Below are positions 10,398-31,100 of a DNA stretch of 32,000 nucleotides, piece after piece. Made by a program: the position numbers and the translations under genes. Position 1 is the stretch's first letter; each line of letters begins with the position of its first letter. Origin of the DNA: Ruminococcus albus 7 = DSM 20455 (GTDB lineage Bacteria > Bacillota > Clostridia > Oscillospirales > Ruminococcaceae); the NCBI RefSeq assembly GCF_000179635.2, contig NC_014824.1, positions 180,001 to 212,000 on the forward strand. Reading direction: 5' to 3'. The notes beneath the pieces were generated by a model. The model did not search any database, was not told the DNA's origin, and saw only the letters and a program-made list of their open reading frames with translations.

Positions 10398-10407
10398 TAA
10401 AAAAAAT

Positions 10408-10452: not shown

Positions 10453-10500
10453 TATAACAGGTCATTTCAATAATAAGAAAGAATGATCTTTAATTATACA

Positions 10501-10518
10501 TGTGTCACGCGTGACACA
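10501..10518. repeat. 18-bp palindrome TGTGTCACGCGTGACACA, copy 3
   Basis: Exact match, located between the parA promoter and the parA start codon, which is an operator-like position. Confidence 0.95.
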
Positions 10519-10536
10519 GAAAGGATGTATTATATC

Positions 10537-13631: not shown

Positions 13632-13735
13632 AAGATAAATTTGATACATATATCAACCCGTCAACCAATTCGGGCGGTACTAATATAGAAGTTTTTCAAC
13701 AGATATTATGTAAAGACCTATACAGCGGGCTATAA

Positions 13736-13789
13736 ACAGAACAGGCAGATACTTCAATTACGAGGTATCTGCCTGTTCTGTATTTTTTA
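13736..13789. terminator. bidirectional terminator between convergent genes
   Basis: A 17-bp perfect stem, ACAGAACAGGCAGATAC (13736-13752) paired with GTATCTGCCTGTTCTGT (13765-13781), is followed by ATTTTTT. Confidence 0.8.
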
Positions 13790-13833
13790 TAGCGCAGCAA
13801 TCTGTACATAATATAGATACCATTGTTTTTTGG

Positions 13834-15531
13834 CTATTTGGGTTTACGTTCATTTCTTGTACGAATAGCATTAGGAGAATCGTCATCTTGCCACGTATGG
13901 TCATTATATATGACATCTGGTATCGCTTCAAATAACTCATAAATCAAATCATGAGCTGAATTATTATTTGGAACCGTATGAAATAGCGGAATTACGCCAA
14001 AAGAAATGTAAAACAATTGTTTGCGAAGCATTTGATTTGGGGAACAAACCACATGAATGTACTTATATTTTCCGTTTAAAAAAATCTGAGATGCAACATA
14101 ACATTCGTCAGCAGAGTTATATACACCATTTTCACCCTTATACTTTTGATTATATTCATCTCCTAATAAGGATTCGATAGGTATTCCAAGCTTTGTTAGA
14201 TATTTAACCCCTGCAAGACTTAGTGAATACTGGTCTTGTATGCCATTTGCTGTATGAACACTACCAGGGATATATATTCCAACTCTTCGATTGCCTTTTC
14301 TTAGCTTATTATACAATTCGAATGCAAAGTTTAACCTTTCTTTAAATTCTGAATCTGGCTCGCCATGATTAAGCGGATGCTGAGCTGCAACCTCAATAAG
14401 TTCATCTTCATATTGCATATGTATTTTCATGTTAATATCTGCTTTTCTATATAAAGATTCCCAATATGTCCGTGCATTTGTTTTTTCTAAGCCAAAATTA
14501 AATGTTGATGGATTTATTAATTCCGTCACTTCAAAAAAAGATAATCTATGCTTAGCTTCATCAATCAATGCATTTATGTAATTATATGTTCGTTTGGCTA
14601 TCGTATTTTCATTGATATTGCCAGAGAACACAAATGAAGTAGTTCCATTAATAGTTCTTGCAGGTGGCATTGTCATTGACTGATACCCCCATACTTCGGT
14701 TTCATTTATGCCCATAATAATTGTTTGACGCAAATATGTAAATGCGCATCCAATATACACAGATCCGACTGTACTTTGATTTGACAAATTCTGTGCTTTT
14801 AGCACTTCTCGCTTAATCGTTTTAATTATATTTTCAAATTGTGTCGCAAATGCATCTCTTGATAATTCTTTATCATAAGGCGTTTCAGTATCAGCCACAT
14901 CATTGATAAACTCAGAATACTTATTCGGTAGTAATATAGTAAAAGAAGTGCCATGAACAAGCGAATCTGCAATGAAATCTGATGACAACGCTGTAATTAA
15001 GTTTGCGCCGGTGGTTGTAAGAATATAAATGTTTGTTTTGTTTTTTAAATTTTTAATTAAAACTTGAGGAGCAAGACCACTATCTAAAAAACCTTTAATG
15101 CCTCTTTGTTTACAATAGTCTAATGGGGAAATCAAATAATCTACACTATTATTATCACATTCTAACTCATCAGTAATAAAACTATTCGTGCCGTCTGAAA
15201 TAAAATCGCTTGTTAATTTAATGGAACAATAGTATTTTTTATCTCTCGTAACGATATAAGTGTATTTTCTCGTGCCTTTTATCTTTATGTCCTCAATATA
15301 TTCTCTTAACACACTTATATGATATGGTACATCACCTGTACCGTTGTCGTTCTCCCAGCATTCTTGGCGTATTCGATCACAAGATAAAGGAAGAGGTGAG
15401 TTGTTAGCTAAATACTCTAAAATACGAAATGGGATTCCGGTTAATGCCTCTTCCTTAGGAATACCATCGGTATAGAGTAATTGAGTATCAAAATCAAAAT
15501 ATTTATGTGAATCAAAAATTAATTTAGACAT
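13834..15531 (-). CDS. winged-helix (OmpR/PhoB-type)-like N-terminus, unknown middle domain, DUF218/YdcF/SanA-like C-terminus
   Basis: I prefer the ATG at 15529-15531 (MSKLIFD...) because GGAGG lies just upstream; this gives 565 aa. The N-terminus FRILEYLANN...LSCDRIRQECWE...HISVLREYI resembles a trans_reg_C wHTH. The C-terminus GIYIPGSVH...YNSADECYVASQIF...IHVVCSPNQMLRKQLFY resembles DUF218. Both domain calls are from memory. Confidence 0.6.
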   Translation of the reverse strand: MSKLIFDSHKYFDFDTQLLYTDGIPKEEALTGIPFRILEYLANNSPLPLSCDRIRQECWENDNGTGDVPYHISVLREYIEDIKIKGTRKYTYIVTRDKKYYCSIKLTSDFISDGTNSFITDELECDNNSVDYLISPLDYCKQRGIKGFLDSGLAPQVLIKNLKNKTNIYILTTTGANLITALSSDFIADSLVHGTSFTILLPNKYSEFINDVADTETPYDKELSRDAFATQFENIIKTIKREVLKAQNLSNQSTVGSVYIGCAFTYLRQTIIMGINETEVWGYQSMTMPPARTINGTTSFVFSGNINENTIAKRTYNYINALIDEAKHRLSFFEVTELINPSTFNFGLEKTNARTYWESLYRKADINMKIHMQYEDELIEVAAQHPLNHGEPDSEFKERLNFAFELYNKLRKGNRRVGIYIPGSVHTANGIQDQYSLSLAGVKYLTKLGIPIESLLGDEYNQKYKGENGVYNSADECYVASQIFLNGKYKYIHVVCSPNQMLRKQLFYISFGVIPLFHTVPNNNSAHDLIYELFEAIPDVIYNDHTWQDDDSPNAIRTRNERKPK

Positions 15532-15739
15532 AATGCCTCCCATAGTAAGTACATTCAAAACAAATCCATAACTAATGAAAGAATTTCAAATCTCATTCTG
15601 AATCTATTTTATAACTAATAGGGCTGTGTTACACTATAAATACAGAGAAAAAGCAATCCAACATCTAAAATGCTATGTATGATTATAGCATAATTCTGAT
15701 AGAATTACAACCCTTAAATGATAATTAGGAGGAATCGCT

Positions 15740-17458
15740 ATGAAAAAATATCTTTCCATTATGAGTCGAAAAACAAAGATCAAATGTGCAGGAATTATTA
15801 TTCTTGCTTTTGTAAGTTCGTTACTTGCCTCTCTTTGGCCTGTAAGACTGGCTGAACTCTACACAAACATTTCCAATGGTACTATCAATACACTGGCTAA
15901 AGGAGCCTTAGCCGTTGCAACCTTCGGTTTGATTTATCTTTCTGCCGAGTGCATTACGATACTTCGTAGAGTTATGCTGGACTGCGTAATTGCTACACAC
16001 GAATCGGAAGTACGTGAAAACAGTGTTGAAAAGCTTCTTAAAATGCCTGCATCATTTTACTCTGGTAGCTTAAGCGGTGAAAAAACAGCACAGTTAAATC
16101 AGGGGGTTGCAGGATTCAGTCAGCTCATAAAAATCATGTGCAACGACGTATTCGCCACTGTTCTTACGGCGGTTTGCACGCTTGTACAGGTTTTTCTGAA
16201 TGCGCCGTGGATTATGGTTGGAATCATGATGCTGTACCTTGCTCTGACAATTCTCATTTCAGTATTCCAGATTCGTTCGCAGAATGGTATTCGTGAAAAA
16301 ATAGTTGGATACAAGAACTCTCTTGATGGTCAGATCTGCCAGTCCATCATGAATCTTGAACTTATCAGAAGCATGAATGCTGAGGAGTATGAGAAAAAAA
16401 GGCTTGTTCCGTCAATCTTGAATATTAGTAATACCGAGAAAAGGCACCACAAATATATGGGATCTTTTGACTGCGTAAAGCAGTTCTGCAAGATCTCATT
16501 CCAGATTATTCTGCTGATTGCTTCGGTAGTTCTCGTTTCTAGCGGAAAGATGTCTGGTGCATCAGTAATTACAGTATGCCTTCTATTCCAGCAACTTGTC
16601 AAGCCTATTGATGAAGTGTATCGTTTTATGGATGAAACAGCTTCTTCCGTAATCAAAGCGAAGGCTTTGCTCGAAGTGACCTCTAACCCATCTGATGAGG
16701 TATTCAACATCAATTCCTCTGGTGAAAAAACCATTGGAAACAAGATCGTTCTTAATGATGTTATCGTAACTAATCCGGCTAAAACTGAACAGATTGCTTG
16801 GTACGAAGATATAATAATCCCCACCAACTCTGTAATCGCACTCCAGGGTCCAAATGGTTGTGGTAAGTCTTCCCTTGTAAAGTGTTTGAACAGATATTAC
16901 CCACATATTCAGGGCACAATTCGTCTTTTCGGTCGAGATCAGTCATCGTTTGACCAGAAAGAACTCACTTCGATGATCTATTACACTCCTCAGAGTTCAT
17001 TCTTTATTGCTGGCACCGTTAGAGAAAACCTGATGTATGGTATTGAAAGAGACGTATCTGATGCAGAACTGGCTGATGCACTCTATCGTGTTCATTTGAC
17101 TGGAACAGGACATGGTGATACTGTTATAGATGTAGATGCAAAAGAAGCTCTTGATTCTTTTATCAATGAGAAGTCCGAGAGACTCTCCGGTGGTATGAAG
17201 CAGAGACTATCTATGGCTAGAGCATTTCTTCGTCACCCTAAGCTGTTCATCTTCGATGAAATCACAGCTAATTTAGATGAAAATTCAAGAGACTTTGTAC
17301 TTGCGAATATCGAAAGCTACGCAAAGAGCATCGGCGCAGGTATCATGTACATCAGTCACGATTCGTGTGTAGTAAAGAGATGTGAGGAAATAGTTACAAT
17401 CAATAACAAGCTTCGCAGGAATACTATGGACAAATTAAGCGAAACAGAGGTGGCATGA
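15740..17458 (+). CDS. ABC exporter, fused permease and ATP-binding protein
   Basis: 572 aa. The N-terminal half has about 6 hydrophobic helices. NBD motifs: Walker A GPNGCGKSSL, signature LSGGMKQRL, Walker B LFIFDEITANLD. GGAGG lies upstream of the ATG. Confidence 0.9.
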   Translation: MKKYLSIMSRKTKIKCAGIIILAFVSSLLASLWPVRLAELYTNISNGTINTLAKGALAVATFGLIYLSAECITILRRVMLDCVIATHESEVRENSVEKLLKMPASFYSGSLSGEKTAQLNQGVAGFSQLIKIMCNDVFATVLTAVCTLVQVFLNAPWIMVGIMMLYLALTILISVFQIRSQNGIREKIVGYKNSLDGQICQSIMNLELIRSMNAEEYEKKRLVPSILNISNTEKRHHKYMGSFDCVKQFCKISFQIILLIASVVLVSSGKMSGASVITVCLLFQQLVKPIDEVYRFMDETASSVIKAKALLEVTSNPSDEVFNINSSGEKTIGNKIVLNDVIVTNPAKTEQIAWYEDIIIPTNSVIALQGPNGCGKSSLVKCLNRYYPHIQGTIRLFGRDQSSFDQKELTSMIYYTPQSSFFIAGTVRENLMYGIERDVSDAELADALYRVHLTGTGHGDTVIDVDAKEALDSFINEKSERLSGGMKQRLSMARAFLRHPKLFIFDEITANLDENSRDFVLANIESYAKSIGAGIMYISHDSCVVKRCEEIVTINNKLRRNTMDKLSETEVA

Positions 17459-17564
17459 GAATTCTTCCCCTTCCACTTGGGGATAAGAGCAAATGATAGT
17501 AAAAATGTGGAGAGAACAACGTCTTCACTCTAAAAACACCATATATTTTAAGGAGGTCTTTCAA

Positions 17565-18080
17565 ATGAAAGTATTTACAGAGAGCAGAGAAAACAGAATG
17601 GAAATGGACAAGCACCTTGAAGGCAGACCCCCGATGCCTCATGAGCACGACTTCGGAAGACCGCTTCCTCCTCATGAGCGTCATGGCAGACCCATTCCTC
17701 CTTATGAGAGGAGAGCAATGATGCACGTTGAGTTCGGTAAAGACGACATCGCTCTTCTGGATACCATCTTCGGTGATCCCGACACCGCAATGGCAGCAGC
17801 TTACATCATTCAGAACGCTCCTCCGGAGATCCAGATCCTTGCTATTCAGCTTATGAAGATGAACGGTTCTTCTACTTTCCTAACTGCAAACTCCGGCATT
17901 GATTCTCAGGTGAGATTTCCGTCTCCCACTATGGACGAATCTGCACAGAACCTCTACGCAGAGCTTTACGGTGATGCTGGTGCTCGTTTCGTTGGTATTC
18001 TGAACTCTTCACCGAATGAGATCGCAGTTATTTCCAGATTGATCGCCTATTTGGATGACAGGACAAAGGAGGTATCGTAA
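17565..18080 (+). CDS. hypothetical protein with N-terminal GRPxPPxE decapeptide repeats
   Basis: AGGAGG lies 8 nt upstream of ATG 17565, which I prefer over the track start at 17493. The product is 171 aa. No family recognised. Confidence 0.65.
   Translation: MKVFTESRENRMEMDKHLEGRPPMPHEHDFGRPLPPHERHGRPIPPYERRAMMHVEFGKDDIALLDTIFGDPDTAMAAAYIIQNAPPEIQILAIQLMKMNGSSTFLTANSGIDSQVRFPSPTMDESAQNLYAELYGDAGARFVGILNSSPNEIAVISRLIAYLDDRTKEVS
17622..17714 (+). repeat. three tandem ~30-nt coding repeats
   Basis: The three units encode GRPPMPHEHDF / GRPLPPHERH / GRPIPPYERR. The repeat is visible at the nucleotide level (ggcagaccc... / ggaagaccg... / ggcagaccc...). Confidence 0.8.
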
Positions 18081-18667
18081 TGGATATGCACAGAACTGCC
18101 AAAGAAATCGGACTGTTTCTCACGGCTATCAACCTGGTTGCTGTCATGGACAGTCCTGATGTTCAGGATAAGGTAGGGGCTTCAATGCCCCTGCCGGATT
18201 CTGACACTGAGAAGAAAGTAAGTGACATAGCTAAGTGGCTTACCGGTTTTGGCAAGCGTAAGTATATTTTCCTTACCCCCGAGATCGCATTGATTGAGGA
18301 GCTTCTCAGACAGACCGACAACAAAGCCGAAGTCACAATTGTTATTCCCTGTGATCTTGACCCTGAGATCAAGGAACGATTGCAGAATAATCTTCCTCAC
18401 GGAGCAATGGTGGAACTGCTCGAAGAACCTCATTTTCCTGCTATGCTCTATCCTAGCAACGGAATGCTTGTAACTTGTGGATACATGGGCGAAGATAGGG
18501 CGATGGTAATGGCAGATACCTACAGGATGGTAGAGCATTACAACAGTTTCCTCGGCAAGAAGGTCTTTATTCCTTATACTGAACTTACCTCAGCGGCTCG
18601 CTATGATGGCTGGATGGAGGTTGGACAGGACAGGATAACAGAGAAATGGAGGAGTGGACATGAATAA
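18080..18667 (+). CDS. hypothetical protein (195 aa)
   Basis: Its ATG overlaps the stop of the previous gene (TAATG), and its own stop overlaps the next gene. It bears only a weak resemblance to Rossmann-like DUF364 proteins, so I make no assignment. Confidence 0.6.
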   Translation: MDMHRTAKEIGLFLTAINLVAVMDSPDVQDKVGASMPLPDSDTEKKVSDIAKWLTGFGKRKYIFLTPEIALIEELLRQTDNKAEVTIVIPCDLDPEIKERLQNNLPHGAMVELLEEPHFPAMLYPSNGMLVTCGYMGEDRAMVMADTYRMVEHYNSFLGKKVFIPYTELTSAARYDGWMEVGQDRITEKWRSGHE

Positions 18668-20000
18668 TACAGCTGTAATCTCAAGCGGTGGTTTGAGGGA
18701 AAAGTTCAAGACTGAAAGAAAACAGAGTGCTTTGTTGGAAAAACTCAAAAAGAGTGGTTCGCTGATTCTTATCGCTGCGATGTTTGTCATCGGAAGTGTG
18801 GTAGCCCTCTTTTTCAATATTCCTATCAAGAGTGTAATGAGCAACTACTCCTATGATGTTCTGGTCATTTTGATCGTCATGGAGTTGTTTACCAACTTGA
18901 TTGCAGAGACCGGCATCATGCAGCTTTTAGCTATCAAGATAGCAGAAATGTCCAAGGGTAAGAAACGCCTGTGTCTCATGATGTTCGGTGGGATGATGTT
19001 CCTTATCAGCTCGTGCTTGAATAACATAACCGCAGTTATGATGATCCTGCCTATCGTGTTTGTGCTTCTAAAAACTCTTGAAGTGGACAAGAAGTATGTA
19101 TGTACGTTCTTTGCAGCTATTCTTGCTCTTAGTAACACTGGCGGAGCTGCGTCACCTGTTGGCGATTTTCCAGCAATTGTCATTATGACTAGTGGTATTA
19201 CTAGCTTTCTTAGCTATCTTACACACGCTTTTCCTCTCTTTGCAATCACTTCAGCGGTTCTGATCGCAGTTTGGGGATATCACGTAAAGAAAGAGAATGA
19301 TGATGGTGCATTAAGAAAGTTAGCTGTTATCAATCTTAAAAGCCAGTACAAAAACATCGAAATCCGATTTGACGTTCTGAAACTCCTTGCGGTTGTTTTT
19401 GTGGGAATGTTCCTTGCCTGGAGCTTTGTCCCTCAGAACATTATCCCCCCTGAGATCATCGCTATACTTGGATACGGAATCGCCATGGTCATCTGCTCGG
19501 TCAAAAAAATCAAGGTTCGCCAGATCATGGATCTTAAATCCGTTCTTACTATCGCTTCCTTCCTTTTCTTTGCGCAGGTAGTAAGTCAGACAGGTGTTCT
19601 GAATCTCCTTGCAGCTTATCTCCAGAATCATATTGATAACCCGAAAATCCTTGTAATGGTAATTATGGTCATTACATCACTTGTGGCAGGTATCTTTAGT
19701 GCTGGTCCGGCTGCTGCGGCGATGATGCCAATAGTTGTAAATATCTGTCAAAACTCTCTTACTGGACAGTCAGACTGGATTGCTGATGCCTATGCAGCAG
19801 CAATCTGTGCCGGTTCAAGTCTCTTTATGTGGTCTGCAACCGCCGGATTCATTTTGAGTGGCAAGGTAAACGGTGCAGGTATCGAAGCCGAAGATGGTAA
19901 GAAGACTTCTTGGGGAGTAGGTCAGTACTTGAAATATGGATTTGTGAATTACGCTATTCAGTTAAGTATCGCATTAGTGGTTATCGCAGTGGTATTATAA
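18660..20000 (+). CDS. ArsB/NhaD/CitMHS-superfamily ion or anion permease
   Basis: About 446 aa and polytopic. The segment FTNLIAETGIMQLLAIKIAEMSKGKKRLCLMMFGGMMFLISSCLNNITAVMMILPI is typical of this permease superfamily. GGAGG lies 7 nt before ATG 18660. Confidence 0.75.
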   Translation: MNNTAVISSGGLREKFKTERKQSALLEKLKKSGSLILIAAMFVIGSVVALFFNIPIKSVMSNYSYDVLVILIVMELFTNLIAETGIMQLLAIKIAEMSKGKKRLCLMMFGGMMFLISSCLNNITAVMMILPIVFVLLKTLEVDKKYVCTFFAAILALSNTGGAASPVGDFPAIVIMTSGITSFLSYLTHAFPLFAITSAVLIAVWGYHVKKENDDGALRKLAVINLKSQYKNIEIRFDVLKLLAVVFVGMFLAWSFVPQNIIPPEIIAILGYGIAMVICSVKKIKVRQIMDLKSVLTIASFLFFAQVVSQTGVLNLLAAYLQNHIDNPKILVMVIMVITSLVAGIFSAGPAAAAMMPIVVNICQNSLTGQSDWIADAYAAAICAGSSLFMWSATAGFILSGKVNGAGIEAEDGKKTSWGVGQYLKYGFVNYAIQLSIALVVIAVVL

Positions 20001-20018
20001 AGAAAAGACGCATAAAAG

Positions 20019-20051
20019 AGGCTGTTACACTTGGTTTTAGTGCAACAGCCT
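20019..20051. terminator. stem-loop between convergent genes
   Basis: The stem AGGCTGTT (20019-20026) pairs with AACAGCCT (20044-20051). The downstream sequence is moderately T-rich. Confidence 0.5.
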
Positions 20052-20059
20052 GCCTCTCT

Positions 20060-20272
20060 TTATTCGTCCTCATCACTACATTCATCCAAACCGTGAAGTA
20101 GCTGAATGTATACACACTCTGCACGTTCATGTTCCTCGCCATCTGTAGACATCATGAGTTCAAGGAAATACGCTTTCGCTTCTTCATAGTCCGTCCAGAC
20201 CTCTCGCTTGCCGTTGCAAACGGTAGTGACTTTGTTTGATCTCGGCACTGCCAATTCAGATATTTTCAACAT
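20060..20272 (-). CDS. small acidic hypothetical protein (70 aa)
   Basis: GGAGGG lies upstream of the ATG at 20270-20272 (MLKISELAVPR...). It resembles small conserved ORFs I have seen on Clostridia conjugative elements. No named family. Confidence 0.5.
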   Translation of the reverse strand: MLKISELAVPRSNKVTTVCNGKREVWTDYEEAKAYFLELMMSTDGEEHERAECVYIQLLHGLDECSDEDE

Positions 20273-20456
20273 AGCTGTTCCCTCCAAAAGATTTATTGTG
20301 AATCCATTATAGCGGATAATTCTTCCGGAGTCCAGATCTGCGGAATAATTGTAACCATTCTTGTGAAGTTCGCAGCAATTTCAAACGCTGATCCGGTGCA
20401 GAGCGCACATATCGGCTTTCGGTGCTGTCAGAATTTCTCCTGACAGCACTTTTCTG

Positions 20457-20801
20457 TCAATGCTTCAACTGCAAGACCTTCGTTTGCAGAAACAGCAGAG
20501 GGTCGATGATCTGAACGGCAAGGCTATCGACTTCTTCAATATCCTCCTTGTAAACCTTGTTCGTGACATTTGCACGACGGGCGATCTGGTTGATATTGTT
20601 GGCAACATTATTGGCGATGCATGCGAGCTCCTTCAGCTCATTTTCGCTGACCTGAGCGATGTATCCCTCAAAAATCATCACACGAACAAATCCACTGAGA
20701 CTGCTCATACCGCTGTTTTCAAACTTTTTCTTGATAGCCGCCATTCCTTCGGGGCTGACACGGACTTTCAGGTACAATGTACGCTTCTTTTCATCTTTCA
20801 T
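20457..20801 (-). CDS. mobC: MobC-family relaxosome accessory protein
   Basis: The ATG at 20799-20801 (MKDEKKRTLYLKVRVSPEG...) is preceded by AAGGAG. It carries the MobC signature NNVANNINQIARRAN. No relaxase gene follows it. Confidence 0.75.
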   Translation of the reverse strand: MKDEKKRTLYLKVRVSPEGMAAIKKKFENSGMSSLSGFVRVMIFEGYIAQVSENELKELACIANNVANNINQIARRANVTNKVYKEDIEEVDSLAVQIIDPLLFLQTKVLQLKH

Positions 20802-20875
20802 TTCTCGTGTTCTCCTTTTTATTATTTCCTTAATTCGGGGTTGTAGGGGCAGCGCCCTCTGCCAAGCCTTATGCA

Positions 20876-21727
20876 TTGTCGCAGGGCAGGGATAACGGTC
20901 ATAAGAATGCTAATCTTAATCGTTGGGGTATAGAGACTATTTCGGGTATTCTCAAAAAGCCTGAATATGCAGGTCACACTGTCAACTTCCGTACTCATGT
21001 GAAGTCCTACAAAAACAAGAAACGTGTGGATAACCCAAAAGAGGATTGGCTGATTTTCGAGAACACTCATGAAGCTATTGTCACTCAGCAGGAGTTTGAC
21101 TTGGTTCAGGAGCTTCGCAAGAACAAACGTCGCCCGACAAAACACGAGGAAGTCAATCCGTTTTCAGGCATCTGCTATTGTGCTGACTGCAGAAAGAAAT
21201 TGTATCTGTGCCGTTCGACAACTATGACTGCCGATCAGGAACATCTGAAATGTGGCACTTATGCAAAAGACAAGAACGACTGTACAATTCACTTCATCAG
21301 AACGATTGTTCTGAAAGAGATTATACTAGGTGAGTTGAACAAGATGATTTCCTTTGTCAAGGAGAACGAGGACGAGTTTGTGCAGGCAGCGATGGATAAT
21401 TCTGTTCAGAAGCAGTCCTCAGAGCTTGCCAAGTCCAGGAAGAAGCTGAGAGCAACCGTAGCAGAGCTGACCGCTTACATTGATACTGCCGAACAGAAGT
21501 CAGCCGATATGACCGCATTCATCATGGCAGTACAGAAATATGAGCATATCACGGAGCTGACACCTGAGATTATGCATGAACTGATCGAGAAGATCGTCGT
21601 TCACGCTCCTGACAAGAGCAGTGGTCACAGTACACAGGAGATCGAGATACACTATCGTTTCGATGTTGCCGTTACAACTGCTGTCGCTGACAGCATGAAA
21701 TACGACAAAAATAGAAAGGCTGCGTAA
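20876..21727 (+). pseudogene. 5'-truncated large serine recombinase (C-terminal two thirds only)
   Basis: The translation starts inside the recombinase domain (RWGIETISGILKKPEYAGH...THEAIVTQQEFDLVQ). It continues through the Zn-ribbon (CYCADCRKKLY...LKCGTY), a coiled-coil and the typical tail EKIVVHAPDKSSGHSTQEIEIHYRF. There is no N-terminal resolvase catalytic domain. The frame opens only at 20834. Confidence 0.75.
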
Positions 21728-21778
21728 CCGCCATGGTTACGCAACCTCATCTTCAAATCATAAAACTTCTTTACGAGT

Positions 21779-21809
21779 ACCCGCCTTTCGGCTGGCGGGT
21801 TTGTTGTTT
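21779..21809 (+). terminator. rho-independent terminator
   Basis: The stem ACCCGCC / GGCGGGT (21779-21800) is followed by TTGTTGTTT. Confidence 0.6.
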
Positions 21810-21826: not shown

Positions 21827-22389
21827 ATGATAGGTGTTGATAAGACAGAATTATCATTCGCAGATCAAGTAGATGCTGTAATGAATGGTAACTTCCCTTT
21901 CTATAGTGCGCTTGCGCTGGAAGTTTGTGATACACCCAAGATCTTAGAAGATATAGGCTGCGAATAATTGCCTATGTTGTACACTCAAAAGCATCTAAAG
22001 AACGCTTTAGCCTCAAAAGACAGGAAAAAGCATAAGCATGGTTTATGTATCAATCAAATCACTGCCTGACTTATTTAATTCAGCTGCGGTTATTGCGGAT
22101 TCACCAACGAAATCAAATAGCGCTATTGTTATTACATGTGAACTGGATAGAGATAATAATTGCATTTCGTATTTCAACAAACAAAAAAAGCCAAGATCTG
22201 TTCTCGTCTCTACTGCTCCAATTGCCGAAGGCGTTTAACAATCTTGACTATGATATTATCTTACATCAAAGCAACAATATTGTTAAGACCTCTGGTGTAA
22301 GAATAGATGGTATAGATAACAAGAACCAAATGACACTTGAAAGATGGGGAGAACAATACTCCGAATTAACAAGTTCATTTAACCCTTAA
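21827..22389 (+). pseudogene. decayed fragment of a conjugative-element polyvalent-protein domain
   Basis: A continuous protein-like reading (MIGVDKTELSFADQVDAVMNGNF...CDTPKILEDIGCE*LPMLYTQKHLKNAL...HGL) is broken by an in-frame TAA at 21965-21967. At least two frameshifts follow, producing track ORFs 22038-22238 and 22045-22389. The ...QLPMLYTQKHL... motif recalls a domain of large ICE or plasmid polyvalent proteins. This is from memory only. Confidence 0.5.
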
Positions 22390-22422
22390 TAATATTATAC
22401 AGCAAAATGATAGTATTGTCAA
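22387..22422 (-). promoter_or_regulatory. consensus promoter-like element on the minus strand (repeat X)
   Basis: The minus strand reads TTGACA (complement of 22417-22422), 17 nt spacer, TATAAT (complement of 22394-22399). By hand alignment it is 29/36 identical to 24406-24441. Confidence 0.4.
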
Positions 22423-22509
22423 TACCTGAGATGAAAAAATAAAAGCCAATTTACATCTAGTGTGCTCGGACTACAATCATTCGAGGGCTTTGATGTTCTT
22501 GACGATTTT

Positions 22510-22549
22510 GCCGCCGCACGCTCGTGACTTTAGTCATGAGTTAGGCGGC
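22510..22549 (+). repeat. LE-like subterminal hairpin
   Basis: The outer stem GCCGCC (22510-22515) pairs with GGCGGC (22544-22549). The inner stem CTCGTGAC (22521-22528) pairs with GTCATGAG (22533-22540) around a TTTA loop. Confidence 0.55.
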
Positions 22550-22567
22550 ATTTCCTGACATTCTGTT

Positions 22568-22639
22568 GTGCATGGTCGAGGGTATGTATATTCATTGTAA
22601 TACCATATCGTAAGAACTACCAAATACAGGAAGTCCTGA
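22568..22639 (+). pseudogene. tnpA: tnpA (Y1/HUH transposase) N-terminal stub
   Basis: The region reads VHGRGYVYSL*YHIVRTTKYRKS*. The YHIV...KYR block is the HUH motif region of IS200/IS605 TnpA. It is interrupted by TAA at 22598-22600 and terminated at 22637-22639. The rest of tnpA is absent. Confidence 0.65.
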
Positions 22640-22704
22640 TCATATACTTCGTCTTGTAAACTGTAAGCCTCAATTAAGAATGTCAGATACTATAATTCTT
22701 AAGT

Positions 22705-22740
22705 GAAAGACAGCTAAGTGAGTAAGATTAGCTGTCTTTC
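22705..22740 (+). other. 12-bp stem-loop
   Basis: GAAAGACAGCTA (22705-22716) pairs with TAGCTGTCTTTC (22729-22740). The T tract after it is weak, so terminator function is uncertain. Confidence 0.4.
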
Positions 22741-22778
22741 TGCATCTTAAACCTCATAAAAAAAATTTGAATTCTGTT

Positions 22779-22796
22779 TGTGTCACGCGTGACACA
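22779..22796. repeat. 18-bp palindrome TGTGTCACGCGTGACACA, copy 4
   Basis: Exact match. The flanks extend it to an imperfect palindrome of about 34 bp (TTCTGTTTGTGTCACG / CGTGACACAAACACAGAA). It lies inside the IS, between the tnpA stub and tnpB. Confidence 0.95.
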
Positions 22797-22813
22797 AACA
22801 CAGAACAACTTTT

Positions 22814-22858
22814 AAGTATATAAAATTTTAAATTCTTAAAAAAATCTACTATAATAAA
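22814..22858 (+). promoter_or_regulatory. paralogue of the parA promoter module, upstream of tnpB
   Basis: By hand alignment without gaps, 36 of the first 44 positions match 10408-10452, including AAAAATCT(G/A)CTATAATAA. TATAAT lies at 22850-22855, about 115 nt upstream of the tnpB ATG. Confidence 0.5.
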
Positions 22859-22969
22859 TATATATGGAATCCATCGTATTTTGTAGCAACTGTAAGCGAC
22901 AGAAGTCTTAAACAGGTAACAGATTACATTAATTCTCAAAAAAAGAAGTAGAAGGAGGGAGTCAGCAGT

Positions 22970-24295
22970 ATGCAGATATATACGACTTACAGCGTTAAGA
23001 TCAAGCATTACAACAACATCTTAAAAGATACCGTTATCGTATACAGACATGCTGTAGATTACCTTATCAAAGTATGTCTTGATAATTGGGATAACATTGT
23101 TACATTCAAAGGTGTGAGTAGACTCACATATATTGAAACACTGATCCATACTACAAAAGATAATCCCGATCCAATTTATGATTTTGATGCCAAATTCTAT
23201 AAGATGCCAAGCTATCTGCGCCGTGGTGCAATCAACGAGGCTATAGGCAAGGTATCATCTTACAAAAGCAATCACTATAACTGGGTTAATAATCCAGTTG
23301 GAAGAGAACCATCGTCTCCAAAAGCAGGATATACATTCCCTTCTATGTACCGTACAGTAATGTACAATCAGACCGGTGATTATACTGCCCAGATCAAAGT
23401 CTACATCCGTAATACATGGGACTGGATAACGATAAACCTTAAAAAGTCTGATATGGATTATATATACAGACATTGCAGTTTTCGCAAGCAATGCGCTCCA
23501 ACACTTCAAAAACGAAGCAAGGAGTGGTTTTTGGACTTTCCGTTTGAGGAAAAGGTCAAACTTGCAGATACATCTGTACACGAACAGACCATTGTTGCTG
23601 TAGACCTTGGGATCAACACCGCTGCTACGATTTCCGTAATGCGTTCAGATGGCACTATTCTTGGAAGGCATTTTTGTAAGCTTACCAAAGAAACAGACCA
23701 TCTGATGCATAGCATTAACCGTATAAAAAAAGCTCAGCAGCATGGTAACTATAAAACACCAAGGCTTTGGGCAAAAGCCAAAGGAATCAATCACGACATT
23801 GCCACTAAAACAGCTGCCTGCATCGTAGATATAGCCGTTCTTTATAATGCAGATGTTATTGTATTTGAGCATTTAGACAAGAACGGTAAGGTCCGCGGTT
23901 CTAAAAAGCAGAAGCTCAAGCTGTGGCGCAGTCAGGAAGTACAGTCTATTGTAACGAATAAAGCTCACAGACTAGGTATGAGAGTAAGCCGTATCTGTGC
24001 ATGGAATACGTCACGCTTTGCCTACGATGGCAGTGGTTTTGTACTTCGTGGTAAATTCGGTGGTTTCAATACCTATGAGCTATGCAAATTTCAAAATGGC
24101 AAGACCTACAACTGTGATCTATCTGCTTCGTATAATATCGGGGCAAGATATTTCATACGTGAAATATTAAAATCCTTGGATGAGAATTCAAGGTTGCTCA
24201 TTGAGGCAAAAGTCCCTCAATGCTGTAAGAGAAGCACCTGCACGTTCTCTACCTTAGTTAACCTGAATGCGGAAATTATTGCTCAAACAGCATAA
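22970..24295 (+). CDS. tnpB: TnpB-like RNA-guided nuclease (IS200/IS605 accessory protein)
   Basis: 441 aa, with GGAGGG upstream of the ATG. The RuvC triad is readable: VAVDLGIN (D), VIVFEHL (E) and NCDLSASYNIGARYF (D). The segment where the zinc finger normally sits has no CxxC pairs (RICAWNTSRFAYDGSG...ELCKFQNGKTYNC). Confidence 0.85.
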   Translation: MQIYTTYSVKIKHYNNILKDTVIVYRHAVDYLIKVCLDNWDNIVTFKGVSRLTYIETLIHTTKDNPDPIYDFDAKFYKMPSYLRRGAINEAIGKVSSYKSNHYNWVNNPVGREPSSPKAGYTFPSMYRTVMYNQTGDYTAQIKVYIRNTWDWITINLKKSDMDYIYRHCSFRKQCAPTLQKRSKEWFLDFPFEEKVKLADTSVHEQTIVAVDLGINTAATISVMRSDGTILGRHFCKLTKETDHLMHSINRIKKAQQHGNYKTPRLWAKAKGINHDIATKTAACIVDIAVLYNADVIVFEHLDKNGKVRGSKKQKLKLWRSQEVQSIVTNKAHRLGMRVSRICAWNTSRFAYDGSGFVLRGKFGGFNTYELCKFQNGKTYNCDLSASYNIGARYFIREILKSLDENSRLLIEAKVPQCCKRSTCTFSTLVNLNAEIIAQTA

Positions 24296-24421
24296 TTTTC
24301 TGAGTTCAGGCTGTATGGTAGAAACGTAGTCCGCCTGCCTAAAGTGGGCGTGTCCGCTAGGACACTATAGGAAGCACGCGACTTTAGTCGTGTGAGGCTT
24401 CACTCTAATAATAGTATATAG
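24170..24421 (+). ncRNA. putative omega RNA (reRNA) scaffold plus about 16-nt guide
   Basis: This rests on established IS200/IS605 architecture: the omega RNA overlaps the 3' end of tnpB and runs through the RE into flanking DNA. The terminal hairpin GAAGC-ACGCGAC-TTTA-GTCGTGT-GAG-GCTTC lies at 24371-24400. The 5' end and the exact RE-guide junction (24401-24406) are guesses. Confidence 0.45.
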
Positions 24422-24441
24422 CAAAATGACGATAATATCAA
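24406..24441 (-). promoter_or_regulatory. promoter-like element on the minus strand (repeat X'), abutting the IS right end
   Basis: The minus strand reads TTGATA (complement of 24436-24441), 17 nt spacer, TATACT (complement of 24413-24418). It would fire antisense into the RE and omega-RNA region. Confidence 0.35.
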
Positions 24442-24738
24442 GTCTTTCGATTTAAAAAATTCTGCGAACACCTCAGAGATCAAAAGGGAGCCTGCAACAG
24501 ATACAACCGATGAAAACGGCATAGTATTTTCTATAATACAGACAAAAAGCCCCTGCATACAGGGCATGGGTAAATGCGTTTTGAATTTTACCACATTATT
24601 GAAAATGTAATAATGACTCATTTTTTTGTAAAGAGGCTGCTGCGGATGCAACAGCCTCTTATTGTTACTCAAATTCGTCGCGGCATAGCTCATCTAGAGT
24701 TACTTTTTCACTTAAGAATATGATAGCTTTTTCATGTC

Positions 24739-24849
24739 CTATTTCTCTATCTCCCTAGCAAGTGAGAACATATCCTGATAGGGTACAAAGTCCAAGGGGT
24801 ACTTAGCTATAGCATTTTCGATTTTATCTATCAAGATGTTATTATTCAT
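24739..24849 (-). CDS. possible 36-aa ORF
   Basis: GGAGGTG lies 6 nt upstream of the ATG at 24847-24849. The translation is MNNNILIDKIENAIAKYPLDFVPYQDMFSLAREIEK. It is short with no recognised family, so support is weak. Confidence 0.25.
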   Translation of the reverse strand: MNNNILIDKIENAIAKYPLDFVPYQDMFSLAREIEK

Positions 24850-24922
24850 AATTACACCTCCATAAAAAGAGGGGCTACCCCTTGCAGGATAGTCCCATTG
24901 GACTTAACCGAACTAAATTTGG

Positions 24923-25420
24923 TCAATCATCTATCATTTCAAATAACTCTATATCATTTTCCATAGCAAGCTGTTTAGCATTCTTAGTAAACTTAGAATT
25001 GGTAATAACCGCAGCCTTATTAGCGTTATAGTGCTTACGAGCAGCGCATACCTCTTGTACTGCCTTCACTCCGACAGTACCTTTGTACCGCTTACACTGA
25101 AATACCCAGCTGTTACCACGCCAATCCCTTGCTGTCAGATCAGCACCATAGTCACCTGTTATAGGCGTAGTCTGCACCTTCCGAAAACCTCTACCTAATA
25201 GATACTTAGCACAGTATAGTTCGTAGTCCCTACCTGACATATTTTCAGTCTTCTTTGACTTATTGATCAGATATAACAAGCAGGCTATTATTAGTGCAAT
25301 GACTAATGATACTACACTATTACCATACTGCTTGTTTTCCAGATCCGTTTTGAATATTACCAGAAAGAAGACCAAAAATATAACTAGGATAATGTTTACC
25401 AGGTCTTTGACAGCTTTCAT
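24923..25420 (-). CDS. membrane-anchored Mrr_cat-type restriction-endonuclease-fold protein
   Basis: 165 aa. Two N-terminal hydrophobic helices are followed by GRDYELYCAKYL...GDYGADLTARD...WVFQCKRY...AAVITNSKFTKNA, the Mrr catalytic-domain pattern (D...QCK). Its start lies 4 nt after the recombinase stop. Confidence 0.75.
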   Translation of the reverse strand: MKAVKDLVNIILVIFLVFFLVIFKTDLENKQYGNSVVSLVIALIIACLLYLINKSKKTENMSGRDYELYCAKYLLGRGFRKVQTTPITGDYGADLTARDWRGNSWVFQCKRYKGTVGVKAVQEVCAARKHYNANKAAVITNSKFTKNAKQLAMENDIELFEMIDD

Positions 25421-25424: not shown

Positions 25425-26186
25425 TCACCCTTTCAAAATCGGTTCATGTACCCCCTGTACCCAGTTCATTTCCTTTCCATACTTATACATTCCCTGATAT
25501 AAAGGTTTATTGTTAGCTATGCTTCTCGCACTTGTATTCTGGAATTTAGTCCCCTTACGAGTTCTATATCCGAGATCATTCGGTTCATCAGCTATGGTAA
25601 GCATCGGTATTTTTTCATCGAGACGCTTAAACACATATTCAACTATAGGCTTTTCTTCATCGTTGATAATAAGCTGTCCATGCTCTATCTTATAACCATA
25701 AGGACACCTTCCACCTGCATAGCCACCACACTGAGCTTTCATACTCCTACCTTTCCCGGTACGAAGTGCTATGTTCTTACGCTCTTGCTCAGCCACAAAT
25801 TGCAGCAAAGCTCTATAGATATTGGCAAACTCCCCACCCTCAACAAAATCTTCTTTGGTAGAAAGCAGTTTTATATTCTTCTTTTCGAGAGTGTACAGAT
25901 AGTAAAAGTACAACTTAGTATCACGAGCAACTCTATCATTCTTGAATACTATCACTGCCTCAAATGGTGGGTTTGTTATATCACCATAAAGTATTTCATC
26001 GAAAGCAGGACGATTATCGGAAGCAGCACTCACTTCATCGATCTTCCAATCGACTATGGAATAATCATGCTGATCAGCATAGGACAATATCTCTTTACGC
26101 TGAACATCTATACCATACTTATCATCGTTAGCCTGCTGAACTGTTGAAACTCTTATATAGCCTATTGCTTTCTTAAGATCTTTCAT
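25425..26186 (-). CDS. serine recombinase, N-terminal portion of the large-serine-recombinase type (253 aa)
   Basis: The catalytic motif AIGYIRVSTVQQ and the resolvase domain are followed by the first part of the recombinase domain (GGRCPYGYKI...). The protein ends right after GVHEPILKG, with no Zn-ribbon or coiled-coil. Confidence 0.8.
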   Translation of the reverse strand: MKDLKKAIGYIRVSTVQQANDDKYGIDVQRKEILSYADQHDYSIVDWKIDEVSAASDNRPAFDEILYGDITNPPFEAVIVFKNDRVARDTKLYFYYLYTLEKKNIKLLSTKEDFVEGGEFANIYRALLQFVAEQERKNIALRTGKGRSMKAQCGGYAGGRCPYGYKIEHGQLIINDEEKPIVEYVFKRLDEKIPMLTIADEPNDLGYRTRKGTKFQNTSARSIANNKPLYQGMYKYGKEMNWVQGVHEPILKG

Positions 26187-26568: not shown

Positions 26569-28116
26569 TTAAAAAGGAAATTTAATTTTCGCCTTAGCTG
26601 AAAAATCCGAGAAAGCATTTTTTACATCATCGAGTGCTTCCGGTACTACTTCAGAAACTGTATCCACCACTCCAGATGCTAGATCCTGTGCTTTTTCAGC
26701 AATGATTTCAGCTCCTTCAGCACCAAGTTCTACGGCTGTTTGATATGCTTCAGTAGCAAGTGCGCATCCTACTGTTCCGCCAACAATAGAACCTCCAACA
26801 CTGCCAACTGGTCCTGCAACAGTACCGATAGCTCCACCAACAGCTCCACCTACCACGCTTCCCGTGACAGCAGCCGCATTTTCTCCCAAATTATATGCCA
26901 GTTCCTTTCCGCCAATTTTTCCCTGTGCATAATCTGAGATATCATCATATGATTCAACTGCGTAAGAAACCGCTGCTGCCGGAAGGCATGATCCTCCGAC
27001 TTTGCTTATCAAAGCACTCGAACTCTTACTCATAGTCTGTGATACAGCTGTTGAAATAAAAGTTGTTCCATAAGCTATCCCTCCAGAAGCTGCTGTATCC
27101 TTAGTAACATCTACAAATGCTTCCTTAGGAGTTATTTCACCTTCCATAACCTTATTAACATTGTCAACTGTAGATACGCACGCAGTTATCGAAGCAGATA
27201 AAGCGGCACTTTCAAGTCCGGCTTTGTTGCCGACACGAGCTGTTTCCTGTGCAAATATTTTAGCCGTATACAACTTCGGATGCTTTGTAGCAGCTATTGC
27301 TTCGCTTGAAGTAACAGTACTCTTTTCGATCATCTGATCGATCTTATTGTACCTATCGATAGAAGCCTGTTTTTTTTCAGCAAGCTCTCTATTACCGCTT
27401 TTTGCTGCATGCCGATACTGTTCCTCAAGTTTTTCGATTTTTTCAGGAATAAGTTGTTTAACATCATCATAATAATCTTTAGGTATCTCCATTTTATCAA
27501 CCGCGCCATCATTGAAGTATTTATCAAATGATTTTGATTTCAGCTTTCTAAGGCACTCTTCTCCATTTTTACCGACGAATTTGACTTGAACTCTTTCAAC
27601 AATGTTTCCATTGCTGTCTATGCGAACTTTATCTACATACTGGTCGTTCTTTGCAATACCTTTAATTGCTTTATCTGCAAGGTCATCTACACGATAGGTG
27701 GTGATGCCTGAGCCTGAGATCTTTGCTTGCATATTCTCTTTTGCTGTACTAATGACCTCTGCTGAAAAGCCTGAATGTTGTTTTAGATTTTGGTGATAAT
27801 TATCCGGATTTATCTTCCATGCCCCTATGTCTTTCAGTCCTAGCGTCTTTTTTCCATCACCAAGATCCTCTCCGCTATACATTTGCTTTGCTGTATCTAA
27901 AAAATTATTTCTAAAAGCAGATAAATCGGTGTTTTCAGCAAGATCAACATCCAGCCAGTTTGTAATATTTTTGTCGATAGATTCATTTACACCGCTGAAA
28001 ACTCCAGCTTCAGGTTTTATTGAACTTTCAAAACCACTGTGCAAAATTTTCATTTTAGATTCAATATCAGAAATACTGTTATCTAATCCACTTGTTTCCG
28101 GTTTATCAAAATTCAT
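26569..28116 (-). CDS. hypothetical 515-aa protein with a C-terminal glycine-zipper hydrophobic region
   Basis: Its ATG overlaps the stop of the upstream ATPase gene (TAATG), and GGGGGAG lies upstream. The C-terminal region reads GSVVGGAVGGAIGTVAGPVGSVGGSIVGGTVGCALA (about aa 415-455). The N-terminal soluble domain contains GFSAEV...NDQYVDKVRID...ERVQVKFVG, a possible D...QxK nuclease-fold motif (weak). Confidence 0.75.
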   Translation of the reverse strand: MNFDKPETSGLDNSISDIESKMKILHSGFESSIKPEAGVFSGVNESIDKNITNWLDVDLAENTDLSAFRNNFLDTAKQMYSGEDLGDGKKTLGLKDIGAWKINPDNYHQNLKQHSGFSAEVISTAKENMQAKISGSGITTYRVDDLADKAIKGIAKNDQYVDKVRIDSNGNIVERVQVKFVGKNGEECLRKLKSKSFDKYFNDGAVDKMEIPKDYYDDVKQLIPEKIEKLEEQYRHAAKSGNRELAEKKQASIDRYNKIDQMIEKSTVTSSEAIAATKHPKLYTAKIFAQETARVGNKAGLESAALSASITACVSTVDNVNKVMEGEITPKEAFVDVTKDTAASGGIAYGTTFISTAVSQTMSKSSSALISKVGGSCLPAAAVSYAVESYDDISDYAQGKIGGKELAYNLGENAAAVTGSVVGGAVGGAIGTVAGPVGSVGGSIVGGTVGCALATEAYQTAVELGAEGAEIIAEKAQDLASGVVDTVSEVVPEALDDVKNAFSDFSAKAKIKFPF

Positions 28117-31100
28117 TATATCTCCCCCTTTGCTGTCAGTATATAACAGATACTGTCATATTCGTCATCAGAAAATCTCTTCAGTTTATTTTTTACAAGC
28201 GCTTTCAGTTCTTTAGAACCTTCGATTCTCATAAAAGTCTTGTCATCTATATCTATTACAGCTTGTACAAATTTTTTCAGTATAGGTATATCCTGAGTTT
28301 TCCATACCATAATACCACCATAAAGGTCATACTCTTCTATCAGAGAAGATATTCTGTTTTTGATATCACGAGATATATTAAGCACCTTTAATGCTGCCCG
28401 CAGGCTACTTTCTTCTATCTTCTTTCTCTTTATCCACGGCTGCATAAGCATACATATCAATTCTGAACGTGCTTCTTTGATCGGCTTTATCTCTGTTCTG
28501 GATTTGTATACATACGGCGAATCGATGATGTTTGCTTTATTTATCATAGTAAGCACAGGATTAATCCAGTCATTTTGATATACCACAGCAACACCACTGG
28601 GGAGTTTCGCTATCTCATTTACCTGATCCTCGGTCAATCCGACAGAGCGTCCAACAGCTTCCCTGTCATTTGCTTCCGGTGTTCTCAGAACTATCTTTGT
28701 GTTTGTATTCTTTATGGCTGCAATATCTACCGATGAAGGCGACTGATCAACGATTATAAAGCCTTCACCATATGTTCTTATTTCAGCTATAGTGTTTGTA
28801 AGCATTTCAACGGATTTTCCGATCAATTCTGATGAACCGCCATTACCCGTATTTTTAAGTAAGTTGTGTGCTTCTTCTAGGACAGTTATGTGCTTAAGTC
28901 CGTTATTATTTTCTGTTTTCCTGTCAACACGATATTCATTCAGGATATATACGATCAGTCCCATGAGAAGTGCTTTTGTTTCAGTTGATTTCACTCTTGA
29001 TATGTCTATTATACAGTTATTATCAAACAGTTTATAATACGGGGTCTGATCTGTCGTGAAAATATATTTGTTTAATCCTACCGTAAGCGATTTTACTCTT
29101 GTCAGCAACGCACCTCTGTAATTTGATTTTATATCAGAAGCATAATCCGAATTATCTATTAACATCCCGAGCTGTTCGGAAAGAATTTCAAAGTCCGGAT
29201 ATTCCGCAACATCTCCTTCAAAAGTTGAAGAGCCAAGATCCCAACCTACAGCTTCGTAGGAGCGAAGTATAGCATCCTTAAAAAACGCAGGCATTGCATC
29301 ATACATCGGCCAGCATACTCCGAATATTTCCACCAGACCGTCAACATGCTCTAGTACATGGATAGATTCAGGGAATCGGAACGGATTAAGATTTATAAGA
29401 TCTGATATTTTGGGATTAGTAGAATATACATTAACATCATCCCAGTTTCCAAAAACATCTTTGTATTCACCTTTAGCAGGTTCGATAACAAGAAAAGGTA
29501 TTTCATCCTGATGCAGCTCTGCCAGCATCTGATAGACGGCATTGCTTTTTCCCGAACCGGTCGAACCGGTAATGAATGTATGCATATTAAGGCTTCTGTT
29601 ATCAAGCTCAACTTTTTTCTCTGTTATCTGTCCGAGATCAAATACTCTGCCAAGTAACATAGTATCATCAGATTGGTCTTCTTCGCTTTTTGAAAATAAT
29701 CTATATGAATTAACTTCTTTTCCGAATTCTGCGTGTTCAATTACCGGTAGTCCGGGAACCGTAGTCCTTGGAAGTCCCAGGTGCAAGCCCAGATCCTTTC
29801 CACTAACTGATGTGGCTGCATTCACAAGTACATTTCCTCCATACACAAAGCGAGGATGCATAAATCTGGAAAGGTACATCGTCAGATCTGAAAAATTCCC
29901 CACAGTCTGCGGATTATTTCTTCTCCACGAATTTATAGCTGAAACTTCTCTTCCTGATTTTTCACCATTCATAAGTGACCGATAATTGCTGGCAGCAATT
30001 TCAGCAGCTGACATATCATCAGAGATAAAATAACCTGCTGTGTCCCACATACCGTAACTGTCAAATTCATCAGTTCTTTTAAGATTTTCATCGATAAGCG
30101 CCATAAGATCAACGACTGTCTTATTCTCTGTTGTGGACATAACCGAGTTTGATGTTGTGGTCGTTACCTGTTCATTCGGAGCAAGGGAGTTGATAAAACC
30201 ATTAAGCTGACCTGAGATCTGTCCGCCAAACATTGCTCCTGTACTCAATCCTCCTGCCTTACCAATAGCTGCAGCTCCACCTATGGCACCACCTACAACA
30301 CCGGCAATTGATAATACAGCACCCGTTATCATAGCAGCCTTCTGTTTTCCGTTCATTTCAGCAAAAGATCTGGAATGTGAAGATGAATCAGTTGTACTGT
30401 CAGTATACTGAACTCTTGCCAACGGTGATAGCTTGGTATACAGATCCTGATAACTTTTTCTCAGCATCTGAACCGTCTGCGGAGACTGATTTTGTGCGAT
30501 TATAATACCTGTGTATTGTCTGCCATACATTGCAAGAGCCAGTTTTTCCAAGCCCTGAACAAACTGTTCATTTGCCTGTTCCGTATTTTTACAATTTCCA
30601 ACAACACTTACCGATGCAATATTGTTCTGATCTAATATTTTTCTTGACAGTTTTCCAATGCTCGTCCTGTCTTCGCTAACTATTTTAACTCCGGGGAAAT
30701 TTCCGATAAGTGTATTTTTCAGTGTATCACCAAGCGTCACCATTGAACGCTTTTCAGGATCATCATCTGATGTATTGCTCCTTACCCCGAGATAAAAATT
30801 TGTTTCATTACCATCAGAATCAATTATTATGAAAACCGATGCGTTATATGTAGATAATGTATTAAAGACCGTAGTAAATTTATTAGTAACAGACTCGCCC
30901 TTACGATAAACCATCTCTGTGATCCTATAAATACGAATATTATTTATTAGTTCATTTTCAAGAGAAGGTAGATCTCCAGCCGGAGCGATCTCCATTTCAT
31001 TAAGTCGTGCCAGATATTTTTTTCTTATACCCTCATCTATTATCTCAAGACGATTATCTATCGTCATTTCTTCGGTCGATGTCATCACATCAGAGTTATA

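Follow-up and report, generated by a model that had tools for sequence, protein, structure and literature searches.

A tnpA-less IS200/IS605-family element on a Ruminococcus albus plasmid carries a plasmid-type intergenic region with a predicted promoter and a probable ParB site upstream of tnpB

The stretch of 32,000 nucleotides from Ruminococcus albus 7 that was analyzed here (contig NC_014824.1, positions 180,001 to 212,000; hereafter the window) contains a mobile, non-autonomous, tnpA-less (tnpB-only) element of the IS200/IS605 family at 22499-24403, in which the body of tnpA has been replaced by DNA related to a plasmid operator-promoter region. We consider it likely that the native promoter of this IS lineage was lost and that the lineage took up intergenic DNA from a plasmid, which would now drive tnpB and may be dampened by the cognate ParB, with mobility depending on TnpA supplied in trans. 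The window copy is located on a member of the plasmid family that donated the module, and the arrangement arose elsewhere, not on the window plasmid. An earlier, preliminary description of this DNA had combined three observations, namely the decay of tnpA, the homology to a foreign par-type operator-promoter and an intact tnpB with its omega-RNA, with the proposal that the plasmid had domesticated TnpB locally. The observations stood, whereas the local domestication did not.

The left junction of the element is marked by TTGAC (22499-22503, + strand), a probable target site and TAM. This pentanucleotide closed each of the three independent left flanks (those of the window, of L001-L003 and of L008), and the sequence upstream of it differed among them. 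The left end (22504-22563, + strand), with a subterminal hairpin GCCGCC...GGCGGC at 22510-22549, was retained in relatives down to 50% TnpB identity. An omega-RNA-like scaffold together with the right end occupies 24200-24403 (+ strand), including the right-end hairpin (24374-24394) and the terminal TTCAC (24399-24403). TTCAC formed the last bases of every right end, and the flanks diverged immediately after it. The hairpins of both ends were conserved across relatives, in an end architecture of the IS200/IS605 type without inverted terminal repeats.

In blastn comparisons the block 22499-24403 was 95% identical to six copies from rumen and gut metagenomes (L001-L006). A further copy in Ruminococcus albus AR67 (L008) belonged to the same subfamily, with 94% TnpB identity and 94% DNA identity over 22499-22990. 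Three distinct flank pairs were obtained, those of the window, of L001-L003 and of L008. The L001-L003 copy adjoins genes for clpX, clpP, trigger factor (tig) and threonine synthase, and the L008 copy adjoins a gene for an LRR/DUF285 surface protein and an HTH gene. The short contigs L004-L006 began exactly at the IS left end, and such breaks of the assemblies at the IS ends suggest a multi-copy repeat. With its conserved ends, its TTGAC flank, a covarying omega-RNA and these assembly breaks, the element behaves as a mobile non-autonomous IS. A near-identity search with 22400-24900 gave no match in PLSDB plasmids or INPHARED phages.

The sister plasmid L053, whose ParB is 99% identical, lacked 22411-24405. 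In the window this block is bracketed by an imperfect 24-nt direct repeat (22/24 identical; 22387-22410 and 24406-24429), of which L053 has a single copy at 8256-8300 with the block absent. The 88 bp from the left repeat to the IS left end (22411-22498) had no match among the fetched loci. Because IS200/IS605 elements insert without target duplication, the block 22411-24405 may reflect gain or loss by recombination rather than simple transposition. Also absent from L053 was a segment of ~8.1 kb (13674-21786) encoding an OmpR-type regulator, an ABC transporter, a CitMHS transporter and a recombinase fragment. Of a large serine recombinase, the C-terminal fragment is located at 20876-21727 and the N-terminal one at 25425-26186 on the opposite strand, so that the gene looks split or inverted. 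Defence-like genes occur around the element at 1489-4203 (- strand), 5864-6550, 8216-9397, 24923-25420 (- strand) and 28116-31118 (- strand); their products are a protein kinase-STAND NTPase fusion, a PIN_3 protein, an AAA_14/DUF4143 ATPase, an Mrr-type endonuclease and a 1000-aa DUF87/FtsK-like ATPase. The gene for this last ATPase adjoins one for an HD-domain protein in L045.

The tnpB gene (22970-24295, + strand) encodes a divergent TnpB of 441 aa with an intact RuvC triad, D212, E300 and D383, all of which were invariant in 14 homologues. The RuvC I and II motifs aligned with Cas12f and TnpB structures. The match to the NCBIfam model guided_TnpB (E = 9e-18) was under the curated cut-off, and the Pfam score for OrfB_IS605 likewise stayed under its cut-off, although the relationship to these families is clear. 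The family is very large: of 8000 scored candidates 6903 matched, and Lachnospiraceae, Ruminococcus and their relatives account for many of these. The usual TnpB has a CxxC...CxxC zinc finger; the family of the window TnpB has just two invariant cysteines, C372 and C382, and the RuvC triad is conserved nonetheless. For 24200-24403, RNAalifold predicted a fold with 63 pairs in 13 relatives, 23 of which showed compensatory changes. This conserved predicted structure fits an omega-RNA scaffold that runs across the 3' end of tnpB into the right end; a scan of the entire window against Rfam, with gathering thresholds, gave no family match. tnpB and the omega-RNA region look intact, as had been described. 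An open reading frame of 441 aa in L051 was ruled out as a second tnpB copy, being a truncated form of the 515-aa open reading frame at 26569-28116.

The replacement of the tnpA body was borne out by comparison with relatives at 76-87% TnpB identity, which have a Y1 tnpA where the window has only remnants. A Y1 tnpA was located between the left end and tnpB in L012, L013, L014, L023, L036, L064 and L065, and in L065 it was intact (134 aa, PF01797). In the window, alignment with these relatives and blastn identified two 5' remnants within 22564-22702 (+ strand), an N-terminal part (22564-22636) and a part with the HUH motif (22635-22702), between which ~94 bp of tnpA are deleted. Relative to the tnpA-bearing relatives, a deletion of ~61-64 bp took out the -10 region of the native promoter (TATGGTATAAT) together with the ATG of tnpA. 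The -35-like CTGACA of the native tnpA promoter is still present in the left end (22504-22563). A module of ~157 bp (22703-22859, + strand) follows in place of ~66 bp of tnpA and has no counterpart in the tnpA-bearing relatives. Behind the module, the C-terminal codons and stop of tnpA form a 3' remnant (22860-22951, + strand; alignment with relatives), now the predicted leader of tnpB; identity to the tnpA-bearing relatives was 75-84% over 22860-22990.

This module, with its stem-loop, palindrome and promoter, was present in each of the seven copies fetched for the ~95% subfamily (L001-L006 and L008). The module is thus part of the IS, and its single acquisition postdates the divergence from the relatives at 85-87% TnpB identity. 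As these relatives still have the Y1 tnpA (intact in L065), the capture was recent. Two other tnpA-less branches of the same IS family (L009:3878-4001 and L011:2397-2507) have tnpB ~60-70 bp past the conserved left-end segment. The captured module was found in neither of them, which indicates that tnpA was lost several times and in different ways.

Inside the module lies a terminator-like stem-loop (22705-22740, + strand). The stem-loop reported previously upstream of the palindrome is real; it has arms of 13 bp at 22705-22717 and 22728-22740, a folding energy of -19.1 kcal/mol and a z score of -4.1. It is followed by the palindrome TGTGTCACGCGTGACACA (22779-22796), a probable parS-type ParB site, in which the symmetry extends to 26 bp at 22775-22800. 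An AT-rich promoter segment (22814-22858, + strand) comes next, with TTTAAA at 22827-22832, a 17-nt spacer and TATAAT at 22850-22855, and the predicted start of transcription is ~22862. No other good sigma-70-like site was found on the + strand of the IS ahead of tnpB, the GGAGG ribosome-binding site of which is at 22954-22958; the activity of the promoter is predicted from its match to the consensus. In the window copy the extended -10 element lacks the TG (TCTACTATAAT compared with TCTGCTATAAT in the other copies), so that the promoter there may be weaker.

A segment of the same kind is located upstream of parA at 10408-10452 (+ strand), with an extended -10 element TGCTATAAT at 10441-10449. 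Ungapped comparison of this segment with 22814-22858 gave 36 identical positions out of 45. The best unrelated 45-mer on both strands of the whole window scored 29, and the top score of 66 other AT-rich 45-mers (>=84% A+T) in the same comparison was 27. AAAAATCT[G/A]CTATAATAA was present in the window solely at the parA promoter segment and the IS segment, and the distances from the palindrome to the AT-rich segment were 10 nt at parA and 17 nt in the IS, in agreement with the preliminary description. Other copies of the IS matched the parA promoter better than the window copy did, at 90% over 40 nt (E = 2e-7 for the module of L001).

The origin of the module was followed up with the fetched loci of ParB homologues and with a metagenome scan for the palindrome plus AAATCTGCTATAAT at spacings that excluded the IS. 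The scan returned six loci, three of which were par promoters (L058, L062 and L063), and in the other three (L059, L060 and L061) the module preceded another gene. The latter gene, found in L059-L061 and in L038, encodes a secreted-looking protein of 356 aa with no Pfam match, and the module upstream of it is located at L038:4653, L059:2677, L060:12559 and L061:5184. This paralogous module in L060 and L061, rather than the parA promoter, was the closest counterpart of the IS module, with 91.5% identity over 47 nt to the module of L001 (E = 1.6e-11) and 88% over 50 nt to the promoter segment of the window. CTATAATAAATATATA was common to the window copy and L060, and AGTATATATAATTTTTTATT and TCTGCTATAAT were common to the remaining IS copies and the modules on plasmids. 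A terminator-like hairpin just upstream of the palindrome was present in the plasmid intergenic regions as well. Among all fetched loci the hairpin part (22695-22778) had no match outside the IS copies, and neither did the stretch that separates palindrome and promoter; the search did not identify the exact donor region. The exact palindrome was absent from IMG/VR viral contigs, and a phage origin is unsupported. The simplest account of the sequence relationships would be that an intergenic region of a plasmid moved into the IS as one piece. On plasmids of different ParB lineages the module stands before several operons, while within the IS family it is confined to one young branch, where it interrupts tnpA, and this distribution indicates the direction from plasmid to IS.

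Four exact copies of the palindrome were confirmed in the window, with ~0.02 expected by chance. Copy 1 (9508-9525) is located upstream of an HTH-S24 repressor gene, copy 2 (10380-10397) upstream of the parA promoter, copy 3 (10501-10518) between the parA promoter and the parA ribosome-binding site, and copy 4 in the IS module at 22779. The genes for ParA (257 aa; 10537-11310, + strand) and ParB (310 aa; 11332-12264, + strand) follow. ParB, with ParB_N and HTH domains, is the probable binder of the palindrome. Around parA, three of the window copies fall within 1 kb, and 1 to 4 were counted at homologous loci. In every locus of a ParB homologue with enough fetched flank, at 43-100% ParB identity, TGTGTCA(C)-N1-3-(G)TGACACA was found at or near parAB. 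The center of the palindrome varied with the ParB. At 82-100% identity the palindrome was TGTGTCAC-GC-GTGACACA, at 77-78% its center was AC, AT or GT, at 52-59% the center was one base, and at 43-45% the palindrome was TGTGTCA-NNN-TGACACA. Contigs with the ParB P0124 start inside parA and therefore contributed no upstream region. The motif was absent from the loci of IS relatives (L009-L037), which had been fetched via TnpB and not via ParB. A ParB protein search of PLSDB gave only matches below 35% identity and thus no annotated close plasmid.

The canonical chromosomal parS is TGTTNCACGTGAAACA, with the half-site TGTTTCAC, from which the half-site TGTGTCAC of the palindrome differs by one base. 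As the palindrome tracks the ParB lineages and its half-site is close to that of canonical parS, ParB is most likely the protein that binds the palindrome family. A candidate parS of a ParB clade of Ruminococcus and related plasmids would thus read TGTGTCAC-N1-2-GTGACACA (TGTGTCA-N3-TGACACA in the most distant loci). This family was seen at 9508-10536 of the window and in L038, L041, L043, L058-L063, L066 and L067, with a spacer length that varied with the ParB lineage. Box II of the window ParB reads ISGHHRLEAAK (GHHRLEA). The canonical CTP-binding box II motif in the N-terminal domain of ParB proteins is GERRxRA, and given this difference it is uncertain whether the window ParB would spread as a clamp. 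The palindrome was also considered as an IS end structure recognized by TnpA and was rejected in this role, since the end hairpins are different conserved sequences and the tnpA-bearing relatives are without the palindrome.

The following course of events is proposed. In the ancestor of the subfamily, two deletions would have cost the element its native left-end promoter and the beginning of tnpA. Subsequently, ~157 bp of plasmid intergenic DNA containing the terminator-like hairpin, the 18-bp parS-type palindrome and the TATAAT promoter would have replaced the middle of tnpA. Transcription would start at ~22862 and proceed through the 3' remnant of tnpA and the GGAGG into tnpB and onward to the omega-RNA region. 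In cells with the cognate plasmid, ParB on the IS palindrome would lower the transcription of tnpB, as presumably it does at parA; this is the step in which we have less confidence. In cells without the cognate ParB the promoter of the module would be unrepressed. Mobility of the IS would depend on autonomous relatives that provide TnpA in trans. Two palindromes enclose the parA promoter, whereas the IS has a single one, upstream and centered ~75 nt before the predicted start; repression of the IS promoter by ParB may therefore be weak or absent. The narrower reading that survives these points is that an IS lineage swapped a lost promoter for a plasmid regulatory region that is probably ParB-responsive. 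If the promoter is merely a promoter and the palindrome a passenger, the case would be one of ordinary promoter capture by a mobile element.

A more far-reaching version, which we regard as doubtful, is that the IS carries a working plasmid ParB site and a ParB-controlled promoter. With every transposition a centromere and operator would then be set down at a new place, the element would sense the plasmid by having tnpB off with ParB and on without it, and the partition protein would be recruited to or titrated at chromosomal sites. Were this the case, the activity of an RNA-guided nuclease would be linked to plasmid partition or incompatibility.

Another reading takes the palindrome itself as the selected part of the module, as an extra ParB loading site (centromere) that ties the host replicon to partition, or as a means of ParB titration, with the promoter secondary. 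No IS variant shows a change in the palindrome, even though divergence within the IS is greatest in the module (87% compared with 95%), and plasmids of the family have several dispersed copies (4 in L058, 3 in L061 and 4 in L053). However, each IS has only one site, and the conservation of the palindrome (18/18 positions compared with ~87% for the module) is not significant, at an estimated ~0.08 with three sequence variants. Replacement of the promoter is the simpler explanation given that the native promoter is deleted, and selection on the palindrome is accordingly judged improbable.

We see only a slim chance that the palindrome is the operator of another regulator, such as the HTH-S24 (LexA/CI-like) repressor, in which case the IS promoter would be repressor-responsive and possibly respond to DNA damage. 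At 9622-10292, directly upstream of parAB, the repressor (HTH_3 and peptidase S24) is encoded together with a near-consensus promoter (TTGACA, 17 nt, TATTAT, TG). Its gene (9660-10292) lies between palindromes 1 and 2 and is conserved beside parAB in the window, L052, L053 and L058, and such palindromes are typical targets of dimeric HTH repressors. However, related palindromes were present in L041, L043, L062, L063, L066 and L067, where tblastn on the fetched DNA detected no S24 homologue; the repressor gene was found solely at loci with ParB of at least 82% identity. The resemblance of the half-site to canonical parS also speaks for ParB, and palindrome copy 1 is positioned ~115 nt upstream of the repressor's own promoter and not over it.

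The preliminary description had read the element as a decayed IS rewired locally, with TnpB and its omega-RNA co-regulated with partition in the service of plasmid maintenance or competition. The par-type homology of the module, the decay of tnpA and the position of the IS copy ~10 kb from parAB on the same replicon agree with this, but we now hold it to be very unlikely. The same internal sequence occurs in IS copies elsewhere (L001-L006 and L008), that is, in ~95%-identical copies with the module at unrelated sites, one of them a housekeeping neighborhood. Conservation extends to the ends, the TTGAC flank and the omega-RNA, and the guide would be the flanking sequence as in any IS copy. The marks of domestication were absent, as the RuvC triad and the ends are intact and the element occupies at least three unrelated locations with no fixed position. 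The closely related plasmid L053 is without the insert, which therefore does not belong to the conserved, syntenic backbone of the plasmid.

That the similarity arose by chance or by convergence of AT-rich promoters, with the palindrome of the IS unrelated to the par locus, is hardly credible: the compared segments are ~90% A+T and TCTGCTATAAT-like extended -10 boxes without a palindrome occur at L008:2636 and at window position 1501 (- strand), but the four exact 18-mers, the 36/45 match against a background maximum of 27-29, the runs of 18 and 14 nt that ancestral-type IS copies have in common with the parA promoter, their score of E = 1.6e-11 against L061, and the constant order and similar spacing of palindrome and promoter in every instance all stand against it.

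The preferred reading, capture of a plasmid regulatory region by the IS lineage, can be compared with several known systems. tnpB-only IS derivatives are common. Like the tnpB-only IS200/IS605 elements of the IS1341 type, the window IS has a RuvC TnpB, subterminal hairpins, a left pentanucleotide and an omega-RNA, with tnpA missing or decayed. Unlike in those elements, the body of tnpA is not simply deleted but replaced by foreign plasmid DNA with a promoter and a parS-type palindrome. As with canonical parS sites, the palindrome is perfect and present in several copies around parAB; unlike the canonical 16-bp site it has 18 bp, with a GC of 2 bp inserted at the center, and the center ranges from 1 to 3 nt among ParB lineages.

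The best-studied parallel for a ParB-family protein with a role at promoters is KorB of RK2, a repressor whose OB sites are located beside or far from promoters; at PkorA an OB site directly precedes the -35 element (PMC11790492). On RK2 the palindromic sites are present both at the partition locus and next to promoters of other operons; here the palindrome precedes the promoter of parA and, on related plasmids, that of the gene for the 356-aa protein. Palindromes other than those before these two genes sit between genes. The module before the gene for the 356-aa protein hints at a small ParB regulon beyond the par operon. In contrast to KorB, repression by the window ParB is a proposal, no KorA-like partner was identified, and box II reads GHHRLEA. 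Compared with the OB site at PkorA, the sites are further upstream, centered ~68-75 nt before the predicted start, and only two kinds of promoter were seen with the module.

In the literature covered by full-text search, no IS with a parS-type site or a ParB-regulated promoter was described. How expression of tnpB and its omega-RNA is controlled is an active question, to which the known answers are an IS-encoded regulator, Arc, or domestication, as in TldR. If ParB binds the palindrome, the level of the element's nuclease would depend on the presence of the plasmid, and the IS would spread ParB sites around the genome. Arc, which is encoded by IS605-family elements, represses an intergenic promoter inside the element (bioRxiv 10.64898/2026.09.24.754181). 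As in the Arc system, gene expression of an IS605-family element would here presumably be under a repressor of an internal promoter. However, the presumed repressor ParB is encoded on a separate replicon, and the IS contributes the site alone, whereas Arc is encoded by the IS. TldR proteins are domesticated, TnpB-like, nuclease-dead repressors that have lost the nuclease residues and the transposon ends (PMC10705468). The window element is different in that its RuvC residues are invariant, its ends are kept and it occurs in multiple copies at unrelated sites; it is not domesticated. If the proposed reading is true, a third route of control would be added to these two, in which a promoterless IS lineage borrows a full plasmid regulatory region that includes the site for the regulator of another replicon.
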